49,649 nt of DNA from a candidate division Zixibacteria bacterium SM23_73_3 (GTDB lineage Bacteria > Zixibacteria > MSB-5A5 > SM1-73). The notes under the pieces are model-generated. The model was not told the origin of the DNA. It saw nothing but the letters and a program-made list of their open reading frames with translations, and ran no database searches. How positions within the stretch are numbered: the stretch's first letter is position 1; the number at the start of each line of letters is the position of its first letter. Made by a program: the position numbers and the translations under genes. The stretch spans positions 1 to 49,649 of the forward strand of contig LJUX01000021.1 of assembly GCA_001304155.1 (NCBI GenBank). The letters run 5' to 3'. This document shows positions 1 to 24,960 of this stretch, one piece after another.

Positions 1-108
1 GATCTTTTGAAACTCTTAGAGCAATTCGAAGATATGGAAGATAGAGAAAAAGTTTTGAGGATTGTTTATGAAGAGTTTAGAAGAGAATATTCAAGTGATA
101 TAAAATGA
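1..108 (+). CDS. 3' end of a hypothetical protein (partial, runs off window)
   Basis: Frame 1 is open from base 1 (DLLKLLEQFEDMEDREKVLRIVYEEFRREYSSDIK). Its TGA at 106-108 overlaps the next start (ATGA), typical of translational coupling. Confidence 0.55.
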   Translation, partial: DLLKLLEQFEDMEDREKVLRIVYEEFRREYSSDIK

Positions 109-437
109 TTATTAACATTGAAGGATTCAAGTACGATCTTGAAATTTGCTTAGAAAAAGCAAGGCGTTCTTTTTGTTTTTACATAAGAGCAACATGCAAG
201 TCTAATAGGAGGACTTCTTGCATTAATAACTTAAACGCAATATTGTCCGAACTTAATTTTGATCCTAGAAAACCAAGGTTTGCTGATTCCTCGTGGATAG
301 TTTCGAAGAAGGAAGCAAGTTGTTTTGCAGATGTGGCAAAGGCGGTTCTCTCAGACTCTCAATTTTTGAGTTATCTCGAAAAAAAGTTACATGAAGATAG
401 ATTAGAGGGCGAGTGGGAAAATATCTCACACGTATAA
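105..437 (+). CDS. hypothetical protein (110 aa)
   Basis: ORF coupled to the upstream ORF by an ATGA overlap; no family recognised. Confidence 0.6.
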   Translation: MIINIEGFKYDLEICLEKARRSFCFYIRATCKSNRRTSCINNLNAILSELNFDPRKPRFADSSWIVSKKEASCFADVAKAVLSDSQFLSYLEKKLHEDRLEGEWENISHV

Positions 438-11833: not shown

Positions 11834-12262
11834 ATGAGCAATTCTCAACAGCATACCAATCCTGCAGATGAACAGATAAAACAGATTTTGCAGAAATACA
11901 AAAAAGTGGCGGTGGTGGGGCTCTCTCCTGATTCAAGCAGACCTTCCAATGGAGTGGCTCGATATTTACAAAGTAAAGGATTCACGATAATCCCAGTCAA
12001 TCCTGAGGAGACACAGATCTTAGGAGAAAAAGCTTATCCCGATCTGAGCTCTATACCGGAGAAAGTGGAGATCGTGGATATTTTTCGCCGACCTGAGTAT
12101 GTGCCCCCCATAGTGAATGAAGCCATCAAAATTGGCGCTAAGGTTATCTGGATGCAGAAGGGTGTGATAAATTATCCTGCCGCACTTAAAGCCTCCCAAA
12201 ACGGCATCATGGTGGTCATGGACAGATGCATGTTTAAAGATTGTAGGGTCTTGTGTGAATGA
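11834..12262 (+). CDS. CoA-binding protein (YccU-like)
   Basis: KKVAVVGLSP, IIPVNP, VDIFRRPE, IWMQKG, VVMDRC. Confidence 0.9.
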   Translation: MSNSQQHTNPADEQIKQILQKYKKVAVVGLSPDSSRPSNGVARYLQSKGFTIIPVNPEETQILGEKAYPDLSSIPEKVEIVDIFRRPEYVPPIVNEAIKIGAKVIWMQKGVINYPAALKASQNGIMVVMDRCMFKDCRVLCE

Positions 12263-12458
12263 TAAAATCTTGGATAAAGATCGGAAAGTTGCGAAAGATG
12301 GATCAAGCTGCCCTGTTAGACAGACTTCTGAGCAGACTATCGAAATTCTCGTGAAAGGACAGGAATGCCCCTTTTGCCATTTCGCCAAGCTAAAAAGGGA
12401 AGGTGACGAGATAGTATGTCCCATCTGTGGATATGGACACAGACCCTCAACCTGATAG
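12255..12458 (+). CDS. small zinc-ribbon protein, candidate C-terminal selenoprotein (...CPICGYGHRPST-U-stop)
   Basis: CPFC-x13-CPIC motif. TGA at 12453-12455 is followed by TAG and a SECIS-like hairpin. Without recoding the CDS ends at 12455. Confidence 0.7.
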
Positions 12459-16485: not shown

Positions 16486-16911
16486 ATGTTGAGCACCTTT
16501 CACAGAGACTCGAAAGGTTTCACCCTGATCGAGTTGATGATCGTGGTGGTCATTATTGGCATCTTAGCCGCAATGGCCATCCCTCGCTTTATGCGAACCA
16601 CCACCAAAGCCAAACAGTCTGAGGCCAAACAGATTCTGAAGCAGATCTATACCATGCAGAGGGCTTACCGACAGCAGTATGATACTTATGCTTGCAATGG
16701 TAAAACTATGTGCTCGGCTTGACCGAATAGCTTTGTGGTCCTCGGGGTGGAATATATGCCAAGTGCCAGATATACCTATCGCATAACCGCTGGCGCCACC
16801 ACATTCACTGCAACGGCAACCTCTGATCTGGATGATGACGCTACTCAGGATATCTGGCAGATCGATCAAGAGGGCAAACTTGTCTGTACCTCCGACGACG
16901 CAACCAGCTAA
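16486..16911 (+). CDS. type IV pilin (141 codons) interrupted by an in-frame TGA at 16720-16722
   Basis: Prepilin site KG/FTLIELMIVVVIIGILAAMAIPRF. The same frame continues after the TGA with pilin-like PNSFVVLGVEYMPSARYTY...DIWQIDQEGKLVCTSDDATS to TAA at 16909-16911. Confidence 0.85.
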
Positions 16912-16935
16912 GTTTAGCTGGGAAATGAAAAGCCA

Positions 16936-16965: not shown

Positions 16966-17281
16966 CTGTTAAGAAAGATTTTGAATGGCTTGTTGGTAAT
17001 GGATATTGCGCTTGTTACAAGGTTCCTCAATGCAATAGAAAAGACGTCCGTTCCCGGCAAGTCTTCCTTTGGACTGAAGTCAGGACGAGTCCACAGTAAA
17101 CAGGGGAGGGGCTTTCAAACTATCGGGTAGCATGATGTAAAATATCCCAAAGCAGGAAACTTAAAAAATTTTTGGAAAAACCTTGACTTTTATAGAACAA
17201 TAGCGTAGAAATAATTAAAGTCAAGGTTGACAACGCGGTTGTATCAGCTTGGTTTGAAAAAAAGAGATAAGGAAGAAAAAA

Positions 17282-17461
17282 ATGGGATTGTTGGATAAAA
17301 TATTTCATCGTCCCCCGAAATCCGCAATGCACCTTAGTCGTAATGCTCCATGTTGGTGTGGGAGTGGCAAGAAATACAAGAAGTGCCATTACGAATCGGA
17401 TCAGAAATACTTCTCCAGTATTGTTGCCAAAACTTGCAAAACTTCCTCCTGACGAAGATAA
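17282..17461 (+). CDS. small SEC-C motif (zinc-binding) protein absent from the ORF track; candidate selenoprotein (...TCKTSS-U-RR)
   Basis: ATG at 17282 after AAGGAAG; MGLLDKIFHRPPKSAMHLSRNAPCWCGSGKKYKKCHYESDQKYFSSIVAKTCKTSS, then TGA at 17450-17452, CGA AGA, TAA. Without recoding it is 56 aa ending at 17452. Confidence 0.85.
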
Positions 17462-17493
17462 ACGAGGTGAGTTTCACCTCATAAGAAAGCTTC
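17454..17493 (+). promoter_or_regulatory. candidate SECIS after the SEC-C protein TGA
   Basis: Perfect 7-bp stem GAGGTGA/TCACCTC (17464-17470 / 17474-17480) with a GTT loop whose G is the 19th nt after the TGA. Possible lower GAAG/CTTC helix; no T run follows. Confidence 0.55.
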
Positions 17494-17627
17494 TGGTCAG
17501 TAACTCACAACGAATGGCTAATAGCCATCTTGTCTTTGAGTGATTTAGGAGATCAAACAATTACACGTATTGTAGTTGTTCAATTTATTGAGCTAAAGAA
17601 GCGTCATGAATGGGGCAACTACAGATC

Positions 17628-18866
17628 TTATTCAAAAACAGGTTCCACGATTTTTCCGATAAAGAGTATGGTTTGAGACTGATTTTCCCGAACCATAAAC
17701 ACAAATGGCCGATCAACCCGAAAACCAGAATGGGGGTTTACTGAGCAATACATCTGAACAGAAGTAACCGCCGCTGCTTCAGTCCCTTCTTCATTCACTT
17801 CTATAAATGTTTTGTGCTTTACCTCATTAATCCACACCTCACCATTTTTATACATTTTCGTAAAGTCAGCTAACCAGGGATCGAAGGCAACGCCCATTCC
17901 TAATGCCTGCAGTGCGTCATTCAACTTCAGCTCATATTCAAGTGTGAACTTTGGAAAGTAGATATCAAAAGAATCGCTTGGGAAAGATAAACAACTAACC
18001 CAGTAATTGAAGCTTTCATGATCAAATTTCGCAATCAGGGAATCGATGTCCCTTTGTGGATGAGGGAGAAAAATTGTCATGCTAAAGCTCCCATCACCAT
18101 ATGGTAAATCAACAGCTTGAAAGTCGTCATTTGAGAAATACCTGTATAGCCCTCTCTGTTCCATCATTTTGCACGGCTTTCTTGAACTGTCGGGCAGAAT
18201 GAACCAATCATCTTTCGTCGACTCTTTGTCAAACTGATAGGTCCAGGTACCTTTGAAATAGATGGCATTAATCAAAAACATAATGGTCATAGGGTCAATC
18301 GGGTTATCCACAATTTCTGTGATCTTTCCATTGGTATTTTCATCAACCCATGCATTGATTATTTTTGCGGCATTCGGGTCGCTAAAATTCAACCCGCTGA
18401 CTAACGCATAGAAGTATTCCTTGCATAGATTGATGAATTCCTCTTCAGGGGTTAAACCCTGATAGTACCATATCGAATTCGCAATCTGAAATTGCACTTT
18501 GGGATCAAGCTGAGTAAGCAACTTTATCAGATTTTTGTAGGACTCGTTCACCTCTTGAATGGTCAAATCAGAAAGTCCAAGAACTTCTTGCATTGCCTCT
18601 TGGGTTCTTCCGTTGGTACCATTATAAGTCATTCCCAATGCCATGGAAACGCTCAAAGGAGAAATGAAAACGTTTTTGTCTTTTTCCTCTTTGATTATCT
18701 CCTGGAAAAGTCTGAGTCCGAATTTGTTGTCCGATTCGACCAAACTTTTGGCAAACCAAGTTGATCCAGGAGGAATTTCATCCTCAGTTGAAACGGGATT
18801 CTTTGAACATTGCAACAAGGCAATGCCCAATAAGAGCACGAGGAAAAGGTTCAGTTTTTTAAACAT
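17628..18866 (-). CDS. serpin (serine protease inhibitor), predicted lipoprotein
   Basis: Lipoprotein-type signal LLLGIALLQC; NVFISPLSVSMALGM, LINAIYFKGTW, hinge NEEGTEAAAVT, FRVDRPFVF. Confidence 0.95.
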   Translation of the reverse strand: MFKKLNLFLVLLLGIALLQCSKNPVSTEDEIPPGSTWFAKSLVESDNKFGLRLFQEIIKEEKDKNVFISPLSVSMALGMTYNGTNGRTQEAMQEVLGLSDLTIQEVNESYKNLIKLLTQLDPKVQFQIANSIWYYQGLTPEEEFINLCKEYFYALVSGLNFSDPNAAKIINAWVDENTNGKITEIVDNPIDPMTIMFLINAIYFKGTWTYQFDKESTKDDWFILPDSSRKPCKMMEQRGLYRYFSNDDFQAVDLPYGDGSFSMTIFLPHPQRDIDSLIAKFDHESFNYWVSCLSFPSDSFDIYFPKFTLEYELKLNDALQALGMGVAFDPWLADFTKMYKNGEVWINEVKHKTFIEVNEEGTEAAAVTSVQMYCSVNPHSGFRVDRPFVFMVRENQSQTILFIGKIVEPVFE

Positions 18867-21176: not shown

Positions 21177-24155
21177 ATGAAAATCTCAAGAAGAGGTTTT
21201 CTAAAGATCTCCGGAGGAGTGACGACTGGAGCGGTCCTGGGCACCTTCGGAGTTCACCTGAAAAGCTCGCAGGCACATGCTCAAACGCTGAAAACCAAAT
21301 ACGCCAAGGAAACCACCACCATCTGTCCATATTGCGGAGTGGGATGCAGTGAGATCGTGTCGGTGAGCAATGACAGGGTGATAAACATCGAGGGCGACCC
21401 GGATCATCCCATCAATCAAGGTTCACTCTGCAGTAAGGGAGAGGCTCTTATTCAAGTGGCAAATAACGAAAGAAGAATGACCAAGATCCTATATAGAGCA
21501 CCTTATAGCGAGAAGTGGGAGGAGAAGAGCTGGGATTGGGCAATACCGGAGATCGCCAAAAGAATTAAGAAGACCAGGGACGAGAGCTGGATGGCGAAGG
21601 ATGGAAAGGGACGGGTAGTCAATCGCACAGAAGCCCTGGCTGGATTGGGCGGAGCCGCTTTGGATAATGAGGAATGTTATCTTTGGTCCAAGCTGGCCCG
21701 AGCCCTGGGTATAGTCTATTTAGAACACCAGGCGCGTATATGACACTCTGCCACAGTCGCCAGTTTGGCGGAAACTTACGGCAGAGGCGCTATGACCAAT
21801 CACTGGATCGATATCAAGAATGCTGACTGCATTATGATCATCGGTTCCAACGCAGCAGAAAATCACCCCATATCCTTCAGATGGGTTAACAAGGCGATGG
21901 AGAATGGCGCCAAGCTCATCAGCGTCGACCCCCGCTTCACCCGCACCTCATCCAGAGCAGATATCTATGCCCCCATAAGGTCGGGAAGCGATATCGCCTT
22001 CGTCGACGGGGTGATGAACTACATCGTGCAGAATAACCTTTTCAACCAGGAATATCTGGTAGATCACACTAACGCCAGCTTCCTGGTCAACACGCAGTTC
22101 GGATTCTCGGACGGTCTCTTCACTGGGTACGACGGGTCGAAAAGAATGTATAAGAAGGATACCTGGCAATATCAACTGGATGAAAGCGGAAATCCGAAAA
22201 AGGACCCAACTCTTCAAGATCCTAATTGCGTATTTCAGCTTTTAAAGAAGCATCTTTCCCGTTACACGCTCGAGAAGGTATCCAGCATCACCGGATGTCC
22301 TGCAGAATTGATTGTGGAGGTGGCGAAAACTTATGGAGCAACCGGAGCCAAGGATAAATCCGCAACCATCATGTATGCCATGGGCACCACTCAGCATACC
22401 GTGGGAACACAGAACGTGCGCACTTACGCCATGCTTCAGCTTCTGTTGGGAAACGTAGGAGTGGCTGGAGGCGGAATCAATGCACTGAGAGGGGAGTCCA
22501 ACGTGCAGGGTTCCACTGATATGGCCATCCTGTTTCACATTCTTCCGGGTTATCTCAAAACTCCAAGGGTAGAGAACCAGACTTTGGCTGAGTATCTGGA
22601 AATGTGGACGCCCAAGTCAAATGACCCTAAGAGCGCTAATTGGTGGCAGCATACCCCTAAATATACGGTGAGTCTGCTGAAGGCTTTCTGGGGAGATCAC
22701 GCCACGAAAGACAACGAATTCGCCTATCAGTATCTTCCCAAGGTGAGCGCAAATTACTCCCACATCTCAATGTTTGAGGCCATGTACGACGGCGTGATCA
22801 AAGGTCTCATATGCATGGGGCAGAATCCAGCCGTGGGTGGTCCTAATGTCCTAAAGGAAAGAAAGGCTCTGGAAAAGCTGGATTGGCTGGTTGCGGTAGA
22901 TCTCTGGGAGACCGAGACTGCAGCTTTCTGGAGTGCTCCTGGAGTTGATCCCAAGAAGATAGGAACCGAGGTTTTTATGCTGCCCGCGGCGGCTTCCATG
23001 GAGAAAGAGGGAAGCATTACCAACAGCGGTCGATGGAGCCAATGGAGATATACGGCGGTTCATCCTCCGGGCGATGCCAAATCCGATCTGTGGATTTTAG
23101 ATCAGATCGGCAAGGAGCTGAAGAAGCTGTACCAAGCCGATACCGGACCCTTCCCTGGCCCCATAGTGCATCTCAACTGGAACTACGGGCCGGGAAGAGA
23201 GGAGCCGGACGTGCATCTGGTGGCTAAGGAGATCAATGGATATGATCTGACCACCGGCAAGCTGATGGCATCCTTCGGAGCGCTCAAGGATGACGGCACC
23301 ACCTCTTCCGGTAACTGGCTGTACTGCGCCAGCTACACCGAGGCCGGTAACATGGCTGCCCGCAGAGATCCCACAGATGCACCCAATAAAATTGGACTTT
23401 ATCCCAAGTGGTCCTGGTGTTGGCCGGTAAATAGAAGGATTATCTATAACCGTGCCTCATGCGATCTTCAGGGCAATCCATATGCTCCTCATAAGTGGGT
23501 GGTCAAGTGGACAGGTCCTGAGACAAAATGGGCCGGTGACGTGCCCGACGGCGGTTGGCCTCCAGGAGATAAATACTCCTTCATCATGAAGCCTGAGGGT
23601 CATGCTCGACTCTTTGGTTTCGGCCTAGCAGATGGTCCCTTCCCCGAACACTACGAGCCTCTGGAGGCGCCGGTGAAGAATGCCATGTCCGCTCAACAGC
23701 TCAATCCGGTTGTCAAAATCTGGTCTGGGGAAATGGATGATGTGGGGACCGTGGAAAAGTATCCCGTCATCGCCACCACCTACCGGGTCACGGAGCACTG
23801 GCAGGCGGGTCAGATGACCAGAAACAATTCCTGGTTGGTGGAGCTCATGCCCGACATGTTCGTGGAGATGAGTAAAACTCTGGCCCAAGCCAAGGGTGTC
23901 AAGAACGGAGACAGGGTAAGAATAAAAACCGCGCGTGGAGAGATAAGTGCGTATGCGGTGGTAACCGCTCGATTTAAGCCATTCAAGCTGAACGGAAAAT
24001 CCTGCGAGCAGATTGGATTGCCATGGCATTACGGTTATAAGGGTCTAGCCACGGGGCACAGCGCAAACTCTTTGACCCCGCATGTGGGTGATGCCAACAC
24101 CATGATACCTGAATACAAGGCGTTCCTCTGCAACGTCGAAAAGGAGGTGGGTTAA
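21177..24155 (+). CDS. fdhA: formate dehydrogenase alpha subunit, selenocysteine-containing (992 aa, Sec at TGA 21741-21743), Tat-exported
   Basis: Twin-Arg signal SRRGFLK; CPYCGVGC Fe-S motif. The two track ORFs are in frame and join as HQARI-U-HSATVASLAETYGRGAMTNHW, the FdnG/FdhA active-site motif. Confidence 0.96.
21746..21786 (+). promoter_or_regulatory. bacterial SECIS element of fdhA
   Basis: Lower stem CTCTGCC/GGCAGAG and apical stem CGCCA/TGGCG with a GTT loop; loop G is the 20th nt after the TGA. Confidence 0.88.
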
Positions 24156-24156
24156 T

Positions 24157-24960
24157 ATGGCAGAAAAAGCGATTCTTCTGGATATGGAGAAATGCATAGC
24201 CTGCCGCGCATGTCAGGTGGCTTGCAAACAATGGAATGAGCTTCCAGCCGAAAAAACCACCTTTTTTGCGGCCGCAGGCGGCTACCAGAATCCGATAGGC
24301 CTTTCTCCTAAAACTTACACCCTGGTGAAGTTCTATGAGCACGAAGAGCAGGAGAAATTAAAATGGCTTTTCCGAGTGCACCGGTGTATGCAGTGCGTTG
24401 ATCCGGCCTGTGTGAAAGCCTGTCCGGTAACCCCGGTAAAAGCCATGACTTTTGATAAAAACACTGGGGCAACGCATGTAAACCGGGAACTCTGCATAGG
24501 CTGTGGAGCCTGTCGGGAATATTGTCCTTTTACCATCCCGGTCATTGATACAGAAGCTGGCAAATCCACCAAATGCACTTTTTGTTTTGATCGTTTGGGC
24601 GATGGAATTGAACCAGCCTGTGCCAAAGCCTGTCCCACCGACTGCCTGGTTTTCGGCGAACGGGATCAGATACTCCAGATGGCTCATCAGGCAAAAGAGA
24701 ACTTGGAGAAGAAGGGAAGACATCCGGTAATATATGGAGAGACGGAGCTTGGCACCGGCACCAAAAAGATCTATGTGCTTCCCGAACCTCTGGACTACTA
24801 TCCGGATGTTGTCAAGAGCCCCAAGGTATCAGAAGATCTAGGCTTCTTCCACCAAATGCTGAAACCTTTTGGGACTTTGACCTTAACTGCTTCCTTGGTG
24901 GGGATGGTGCTAGCCAAGATGAAAGAGGTAAAAGAAAAAGACAAAGTCAAGCCTTCTTGA
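24157..24960 (+). CDS. fdhB: formate dehydrogenase beta (4Fe-4S) subunit with C-terminal membrane anchor
   Basis: CIACRACQVACK, CMQCVDPACVKACP, CIGCGACREYCP, KCTFC...PACAKACPT; hydrophobic C-terminal segment. Confidence 0.92.
   Translation: MAEKAILLDMEKCIACRACQVACKQWNELPAEKTTFFAAAGGYQNPIGLSPKTYTLVKFYEHEEQEKLKWLFRVHRCMQCVDPACVKACPVTPVKAMTFDKNTGATHVNRELCIGCGACREYCPFTIPVIDTEAGKSTKCTFCFDRLGDGIEPACAKACPTDCLVFGERDQILQMAHQAKENLEKKGRHPVIYGETELGTGTKKIYVLPEPLDYYPDVVKSPKVSEDLGFFHQMLKPFGTLTLTASLVGMVLAKMKEVKEKDKVKPS

Follow-up and report, generated by a model that had tools for sequence, protein, structure and literature searches.

The locus described here raises the question of whether a TGA codon that closes a short reading frame is a stop codon or specifies selenocysteine (Sec). 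It lies in a stretch of 49,649 nucleotides from the candidate division Zixibacteria bacterium SM23_73_3 (contig LJUX01000021.1 of assembly GCA_001304155.1), which is hereafter called the window. An ATG at position 17282 of the forward strand opens a frame of 56 codons that ends ...TCKTSS and runs into a TGA at 17450-17452, which is followed by two sense codons and a TAA. An earlier note on this DNA had described this open reading frame (ORF), with a ribosome-binding site (RBS), a SEC-C motif and the terminal succession TCKTSS TGA CGA AGA TAA; both the coordinates and the match to the SEC-C domain proved correct on renewed analysis.

Comparative sequence evidence indicates that the gene at 17282-17461 very probably encodes a 59-residue selenoprotein, with its UGA decoded as Sec. 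A ribosome reaching the UGA at 17450-52 would there receive SelB with Sec-tRNA(Sec), recruited by a minimal selenocysteine insertion sequence (SECIS) hairpin at 17464-80. Sec would be inserted, two basic residues would be added and translation would end at the TAA at 17459-61. We infer this mechanism from the anatomy of the locus, in which the SECIS would lie wholly in the 3' untranslated region (3' UTR).

The gene and its invariant TGA

The complete coding sequence (17282..17461, +), delineated from the ORF, from alignments of orthologues and from the ratio of nonsynonymous to synonymous substitution rates (dN/dS), comprises 59 codons plus the stop and would specify MGLLDKIFHRPPKSAMHLSRNAPCWCGSGKKYKKCHYESDQKYFSSIVAKTCKTSS-U-RR. 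A Shine-Dalgarno-like AAGGAAG can be read directly in the sequence 6 nt 5' of the ATG (17269..17275, +), and the start codon and RBS region are alignable among congeners. Residues 20-37 (17339..17392, +) form a SEC-C or SecA-type metal-binding motif, which the Pfam model PF02810 matches with 43.7 bits, its cut-off being 20.4 (E=2.5e-11). In the family alignment the metal-ligand set C24, C26, C35 and H36 is invariant or nearly so, and is accompanied by a conserved S28 and Y32. Cys52 (codon 17435..17437, +), the prospective partner of residue 57 in a C-x4-U arrangement, is present in at least 90% of the sequences, and the combination of a 59-residue SEC-C protein with a C-x4-U pair, as proposed in the earlier note, is thus real at the sequence level. 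Pairwise dN/dS in the region from the SEC-C motif to the tail is ~0.12, with dS near saturation. Purifying selection of this kind, together with the conserved ligands, rules out a secA fragment in decay, and a product that is no more than a leader peptide is improbable; a pseudogene remnant of the 3' end of secA was rejected on account of the same ratio and of the gene's own start codon and RBS. These observations indicate that the gene is real and under purifying selection.

Members of the family were gathered in four independent ways: 1) from the relatives of the host genome; 2) from the 285 species genomes of its phylum; 3) with a DNA pattern scanned over 185,579 species genomes, which encodes KCHYxxDxKYF only and is blind to the tail and the stop; and 4) by exact look-ups of divergent members drawn from a collection of 5.8 billion proteins. 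A search with the family alignment was swamped by generic SEC-C motifs and recovered 2 family loci. After pooling and de-duplication the set comprised 60 distinct loci, 35 of them from the stop-blind pattern. The carriers belong to the Zixibacteria, Planctomycetota/Phycisphaerae, Myxococcota, Desulfobacterota, Krumholzibacteria and Nitrospirota, with further loci in unclassified metagenome-assembled genomes (MAGs). The earlier note had pointed to the identity of the stop codon among homologues as a check on its proposal, and we found no variation: the frame ends in TGA in every one of the 60 loci, which span at least 6 phyla, as against 24 of 73 control ORFs, namely SecA and methionyl aminopeptidase frames with the identical CWCGSGKKYKKCH motif, and 35% of the long ORFs of the host genome. 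In the latter TAA accounts for 41% and TAG for 24% of the stops; TGA is therefore an ordinary stop in this host, and a genome-wide reassignment of the codon was rejected. The layout anchored on the TGA, which consists of a short basic extension, a second stop and a hairpin at fixed spacing, recurs throughout the 60 loci.

The sequence after the TGA also behaves as coding. In the window it consists of CGA (17453-55) and AGA (17456-58), both on the plus strand, which according to the extension pattern of the family would be translated as Arg-Arg, and of the in-frame TAA (17459..17461, +) two codons past the TGA, which would be the true stop. Among 54 pooled loci the in-frame extension measures 2 codons in 45, 3 in 5, 5 in 3 and 0 in one, and five divergent members examined later have extensions of 2, 2, 2, 3 and 5 codons; the Nitrospirae locus L225 lies outside these counts. 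The first codon of the extension specifies K, S, R or G in the pooled loci; of the 53 that have an extension, 44 have R or K at the second. Amino acid conservation past the UGA accordingly takes the form [K/R/S/G][R/K] followed by a stop, and the frame is always closed by a genuine TAA, TGA or TAG. The second codon is variously spelt AGA, AGG, CGG, CGT, CGA, AAA or AAG, and thus draws on both the AGR and the CGN families of Arg codons. A switch between these two needs at least two base changes, which points to selection on the amino acid and not on the RNA. In none of the loci listed is the TGA directly followed by T, so that these loci avoid UGA-U, the context in which termination is strongest.

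The family comprises ~120 clusters retrievable by indexed sequence words, and an exhaustive profile search finds many more representatives of 55-65 residues. Their database records bear names such as 'hypothetical protein' or 'YecA (UPF0149 family)', and every one of those examined gives the TGA-truncated product. These called products stop 2-6 residues past a Cys (...TCKTSS, ...ACKGPV, ...CSLNCGPT, ...SACKTYT), as a systematic truncation at C-x(2-5)-U would cause them to do.

The downstream hairpin and the decoding of UGA in the host

The candidate SECIS (17464..17480, +) is a hairpin with a stem of 7 bp and a GUU loop, which can alternatively be drawn as 6 bp with an AGUUU loop. Its arms, GAGGTGA (17464-70) and TCACCTC (17474-80), pair perfectly around the loop GTT (17471-73), precisely as the earlier note had described them. 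The hairpin begins 11 nt past the UGA and lies entirely 3' of the true stop; 18 nt separate the UGA from the loop, whose G (17471) is the 19th nucleotide after the TGA. It folds with -10.1 kcal/mol (z=-4.6), and none of 200 shuffled sequences folded as well. A possible lower helix, GAAG (17454-57) with CUUC (17490-93), would enclose it within 17454..17493 (+); support for this helix is weak, and in minimum free energy (MFE) folds it is seen in the genus only and not in other lineages.

Both the spacing and the pairing are conserved across the family. Of 54 loci, 48 place the loop G within +18 to +21 and 32 place it exactly at +19, which bears out the expectation of a hairpin at constant distance from the TGA. 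In a loop-anchored alignment of 41 sequences, in which the SECIS of the formate dehydrogenase gene fdhA from the window is included, the loop G is invariant and is followed by U in 90%. Paired bases occupy 96% of the stem cells in this alignment, and each of the seven pairs is backed by compensatory double changes, of which GAGATGA/TCATCTC, GGCGTGA/TCACGTC, GAGGTGG/CCACCTC and GAGCTGC/GCAGCTC are examples; none of 500 shuffles and none of the slid registers was comparable. The published model of the bacterial SECIS (bSECIS) by Zhang and Gladyshev specifies a loop of 3-9 nt, a stem of 4-16 bp, a distance of 16-37 nt from UGA to loop and an MFE of at most -7.5 kcal/mol, with a G within the first two loop positions that is usually followed by G or U (PMC13188914). 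With its GUU loop, 7 bp, 18 nt and -10.1 kcal/mol, the hairpin agrees with all four constraints of this model. It has no match in Rfam; in the same check the fdhA SECIS alone was matched, weakly, as SECIS_3 (32.6 bits, E=4e-4).

The fdhA gene (21177-24158, +) provides an internal control for the decoding of UGA in this host. It encodes a protein with a Tat signal and is split at its Sec codon by the ORF list into pieces of 188 and 796 residues. When the TGA at 21741-43 is read as U, the canonical formate dehydrogenase site HQARIUHSATV results. Codon and SECIS together occupy 21741..21770 (+), as judged from the translation, the Rfam match and the fold, and the apex of the element, CGCCA-GTT-TGGCG (21758-70), places its loop G at +20. 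The mini-gene hairpin has the A-GUU-U apex in common with it. The Sec site and SECIS of fdhA thus show that the host decodes UGA as Sec by way of an equally spaced A-GUU-U apex.

A tRNA-Sec is present in the host genome at a contig edge (contig C25, positions 13-109, minus strand), where it is predicted by ARAGORN and matched by Rfam RF01852 with 68.9 bits. The curated threshold for selB is exceeded in each of the 13 congeners and, across the phylum, in 257 of 285 genomes; of the 19 carriers from outside the phylum, 17 exceed it as well. Within the phylum the co-occurrence is non-discriminating at this frequency. From the congeners, the tRNA-Sec and fdhA, we infer the presence of selA, selB and selD in the host.

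A genome-wide scan for stop codons followed by a hairpin with an AGTYT apex returned 4 cases of TGA, 3 of TAA and 2 of TAG, which are too few for a statement on enrichment. The four TGA cases are the mini-gene, fdhA, one likely chance match and the stop, at 12453, of a mini-ORF with a zinc ribbon. The last of these (12255-12455, +) ends ...CPICGYGHRPST with TGA (12453-12455) and then TAG, and is followed by a hairpin of 9 bp, AAGGGAGGA-GTT-TCCTCTTTT, with its loop G at +21; the GUU loop and the spacing are those of the mini-gene and fdhA. Its read-through product was assigned to no family in the NCBIfam scan, and may represent a second selenoprotein that annotation has missed. Directly upstream of the mini-gene, a type IV pilin-like ORF (FTLIELMIVVVIIG..., window 16486-16922, +) stops at a TGA at 16720-22.

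Rival readings of the TGA

Several observations weigh against Sec decoding. 1) No homologue with Cys at the Sec position was found among the 120 word-indexed hits or the best 150 of the exhaustive profile search. The absence of Cys homologues is unusual for bacterial selenoproteins, among which such forms are a usual and not an obligatory criterion. The contrast that the earlier note had suggested testing, with TGA in Sec-positive genomes and Cys elsewhere, does not exist, the carrier lineages being nearly all Sec-positive. The family appears to be Sec-only. 2) The translated extension is just two residues long, and the downstream coding signal is correspondingly small. 3) Read on the minus strand, 17462-17482 presents a hairpin followed by TTATCTTCGT that fits the pattern of an intrinsic terminator for the convergent serpin gene (17628-18866, -). 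4) Read-through proteins of the family, modelled with AlphaFold2 from an alignment of 38 sequences, gave a predicted local distance difference test score (pLDDT) of 52 and a predicted template modelling score (pTM) of 0.24, too poor for use. 5) No selA, selB or selD was found in the 1.88-Mb, 82%-complete MAG of the host. SecA likewise has no match there when a congener's SecA is used as the tblastn query, which makes the incompleteness of the MAG evident and gives such absences little meaning.

One alternative to Sec holds that the UGA is recoded without selenium: the hairpin would help a suppressor or near-cognate tRNA for Trp, Cys, Arg or Gly to read the codon, and the product would be a selenium-free protein, also of 59 residues. 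The inserted residue is indistinguishable from sequence alone, and the avoidance of UGA-U would suit recoding of any kind. We nevertheless regard this explanation as improbable, given that the hairpin satisfies every bSECIS criterion and repeats the apex found in the fdhA SECIS of this genome, that the carriers are almost all selB-positive, and that a redox or ligand Sec is usually paired with a conserved Cys located 3-4 residues before it, as here. The normal use of TGA as a stop in 35% of the long ORFs also speaks against a reassignment of the codon throughout the genome.

The main alternative, about as improbable or slightly more so, is an ordinary stop at the TGA, with a 56-residue product, the TAA as a back-up stop and the hairpin as a 3' stabiliser or terminator, perhaps for a convergent gene. 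The first three points raised above, namely the missing Cys homologues, the extension of only two residues and the terminator-like hairpin with its T-rich tail on the minus strand, would all fit this explanation, as would the downstream neighbour, which is convergent in 5 of the 5 inspected loci that have called downstream genes. On the plus strand, however, the tail CATAAGAAAG lacks the U run of an intrinsic terminator, in keeping with the earlier note's judgement that without a T run the hairpin would terminate poorly. In GC-rich orthologues (TGA GGC CGG TAA..., TGA GGC ACG CGC TGA...) neither strand carries a T-rich tail, the neighbouring genes change between lineages, and the conserved loop G-U and the 11-nt spacing are needless for a terminator, whereas a bona fide SECIS in the window, that of fdhA, shares the apex. 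An ordinary stop would also leave unexplained why TGA is used in 60 of 60 loci against a baseline of 33-35%, and why Arg is retained at the second position of the extension through switches between AGR and CGN. Within the genus the hairpin may serve a double duty, as SECIS and as minus-strand terminator for the serpin gene. A separate terminator-like hairpin on the plus strand, ATGGCTA-AT-AGCCAT followed by CTTGTCTTTG (17514..17538), was detected as a pattern match in a consensus scan and is the probable end of the transcript.

Least probable of all, to the point of being barely credible, is a regulatory leader, a short ORF ending in UGA and SECIS whose translation would sense the supply of selenium or Sec-tRNA and control a neighbour while its peptide remained unimportant, since the peptide carries a complete and strongly conserved metal-binding domain with invariant ligands at a dN/dS of 0.12, the genes downstream are not conserved and often convergent, and a terminator-like site of its own follows in the window.

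SecA-derived ends and relation to known selenoproteins

With Sec as the preferred reading of the UGA, the architecture of the protein is best described as an N-terminal MGLLDKIF motif, a complete SEC-C knuckle CWCGSGKKYKKCH, a putative helix and an apparently flexible tail C52-x4-U57-R-R; the helical state of the conserved stretch between knuckle and tail is weakly predicted. The first nine residues, M-G-L-L-D-K-I-F-H (17282..17308, +), are of the amphipathic type found at the N-terminus of SecA. This resemblance was identified with a position-specific scoring matrix of 7 residues (family positions 2-8 of the GLLDKIF type, the Met being excluded), which was run on 19 complete SecA proteins. 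In 12 of the 19 its best match within a SecA of ~1000 residues lay immediately behind the initiator Met, as against 2 of 273 long ORFs of the host genome, and the N-termini so matched include M-LNFFKKFF, M-SFLTKLF, M-AFLSKFF and MAGNIITKIF.... At the sequence level the protein is thus composed of the N-terminal tip of SecA, the metal-binding domain (MBD) of SecA, a new putative helix and a C-x4-U-basic tail. It is no SecA itself: the DEAD motor, the preprotein cross-linking domain and the helical scaffold domain are absent, and its 59 residues hold the N-motif and the MBD alone.

The full ligand set CxCxSGx5CH, along with the Ser and the Tyr, is common to the mini-family and to the MBD of SecA (PF02810), YecA and YchJ, and it is with YecA that several members of the family are identified by name in the JGI annotation. 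SecA is nearer to the mini-protein in that the N-terminus of the latter also copies its N-terminal motif. These proteins differ from the mini-protein, which has no motor, UPF0149 or NTF2-like domain, and they in turn lack the putative helix and the Cys-Sec tail that follow its MBD. The congener SecA ends ...KKCCGA straight past the SEC-C motif, unlike the mini-protein.

The exact 13-residue motif CWCGSGKKYKKCH also occurs in other proteins (L195-L274): it stands C-terminally in the SecA of Solirubrobacterales, Acidobacteriota and other groups, and N-terminally in ORFs of ~290 residues from Collinsella, Selenomonas and clostridia, which are named methionyl aminopeptidase in their source. This distribution attests to the mobility of the knuckle. 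Two variants of the mini-protein were encountered. In P0043 (L189:1501-1674), from a selB-positive genome, the partner Cys and the TGA are both lost and the stop is TAG. P0054, of 39 residues and from the candidate division Zixibacteria, consists of the N-motif and SEC-C only, and ends without a tail in ...KKCCGR, as SecA does.

No neighbouring gene is conserved across phyla, and operon context therefore yields no functional clue. An ORF of ~300 residues that resembles DUF89/ARMT1 by eye (DNAGE, KGxxNYE) follows the mini-gene on the same strand in six loci (L039, L174, L178, L179, L182 and L185), which represent three or more lineages and do not make it a universal follower. In four loci a small NifX/NifB-like ORF lies 3' of the mini-gene.

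Judged by its domains, the product is most likely a small metal-binding or redox protein, a functional assignment far less certain than the decoding of Sec. The Cys-Sec pair might cycle as a selenenylsulfide, or it might supply soft ligands to the metal. In SecA the N-terminal helix contacts the membrane and the ribosome, whereas the metal-binding domain contacts SecB and the ribosome; the SecA-derived ends of the mini-protein could bring it to the docking places of the SecA termini at the membrane, the ribosome exit region and SecB-type partners. A more specific proposal, which we consider rather unlikely and offer as a speculation, is that of an obligately Sec-containing 'mini-SecA', with the N-terminal helix and the MBD of SecA linked without intervening domains and the Cys-Sec tail added, which would serve at these docking sites as a redox or metal switch dependent on selenium.

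The nearest known architecture appears to be the UXX-star class, with which the family has the arrangement Sec-x-x-stop in common but no sequence. UXX-star 1 and 2 (NF041114, NF041211) and KCU-star (NF033934) are likewise small proteins with Sec near the C-terminus that are truncated at UGA in databases (listed in PMC13188914). In UXX-star two residues and a stop follow the Sec, as the name indicates, and the same is true of the mini-family (U-R-R-stop in the present case; 2 residues in 45 of 54 loci). With the Sec so close to the stop in UXX-star and KCU-star, their SECIS must lie past the true stop, and a metal-ligand or redox role has been suggested for their terminal Sec. A sequence relation to UXX-star is absent, the read-through protein matching neither of its hidden Markov models (NF041114, NF041211) at E up to 1, and the mini-family is set apart by its SEC-C domain, the C-x4-U (or C-x3-U) pair, the basic dipeptide and the lack of detected Cys forms.

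Two other comparisons concern the SECIS and the tail. The minimal SECIS of E. coli is reportedly, from work by Liu et al. in 1998, a 17-nt upper stem-loop placed 11 nt from the UGA. Set against this fdhF-type SECIS of E. coli, the mini-gene hairpin is alike in its 17 nt, in its start 11 nt past the UGA and in the G-U of its apical loop; it differs in lying outside the frame, in the 3' UTR, and in having neither a bulged U nor an obligatory lower helix. Among eukaryotic proteins with C-terminal Sec, thioredoxin reductase carries the tail GCUG, a mobile redox arm, and SELENOO the tail CxxU-SS. Both resemble the mini-family in placing a Cys-Sec pair on the last few residues, but their folds are unrelated, their Sec is inserted by the eukaryotic SECIS machinery, and they share neither the C-x4-U spacing nor the basic terminal dipeptide found here.

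The inventory of May 2026 lists 119 prokaryotic selenoprotein families and has no entry with SEC-C/PF02810 (PMC13188914). NCBIfam release 20 holds no model for the family, the read-through protein matching generic SEC-C-containing models alone (E up to 1), and our literature search found no paper that pairs 'selenoprotein' or 'selenocysteine' with 'SEC-C'. The family is also not mentioned in BSepDB (considered without its supplements), in deep-Sep, in the Haft 2022 preprint or in the 2026 review. On the available evidence we therefore class these SEC-C mini-proteins as a new selenoprotein family, with a SECIS of canonical bacterial type that is minimal and predicted to lie fully in the 3' UTR. 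Three traits of the family are unusual: the lack of Cys forms, the SecA-derived ends and its invisibility to both standard discovery strategies.

The last of these traits points to a blind spot, in that searches for Sec/Cys pairs miss families without Cys forms, and searches for ORF extensions see two extra codons only. The family would extend the 119 listed prokaryotic selenoprotein families with one that has a wide distribution among anaerobic sediment lineages, and in which a Zn/Fe knuckle of the SecA type and the SecA N-motif would be joined to a terminal Cys-Sec pair in one small protein. It would offer a small and easily expressed model for Sec beside a metal site, for a bacterial SECIS located fully in the 3' UTR and for SecA fragments as independent regulators. 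Were the 'mini-SecA' proposal true, anaerobic bacteria of sediments would have their protein export coupled to selenium, metal or redox status, and the Sec translocation machinery would have its first associated selenoprotein.

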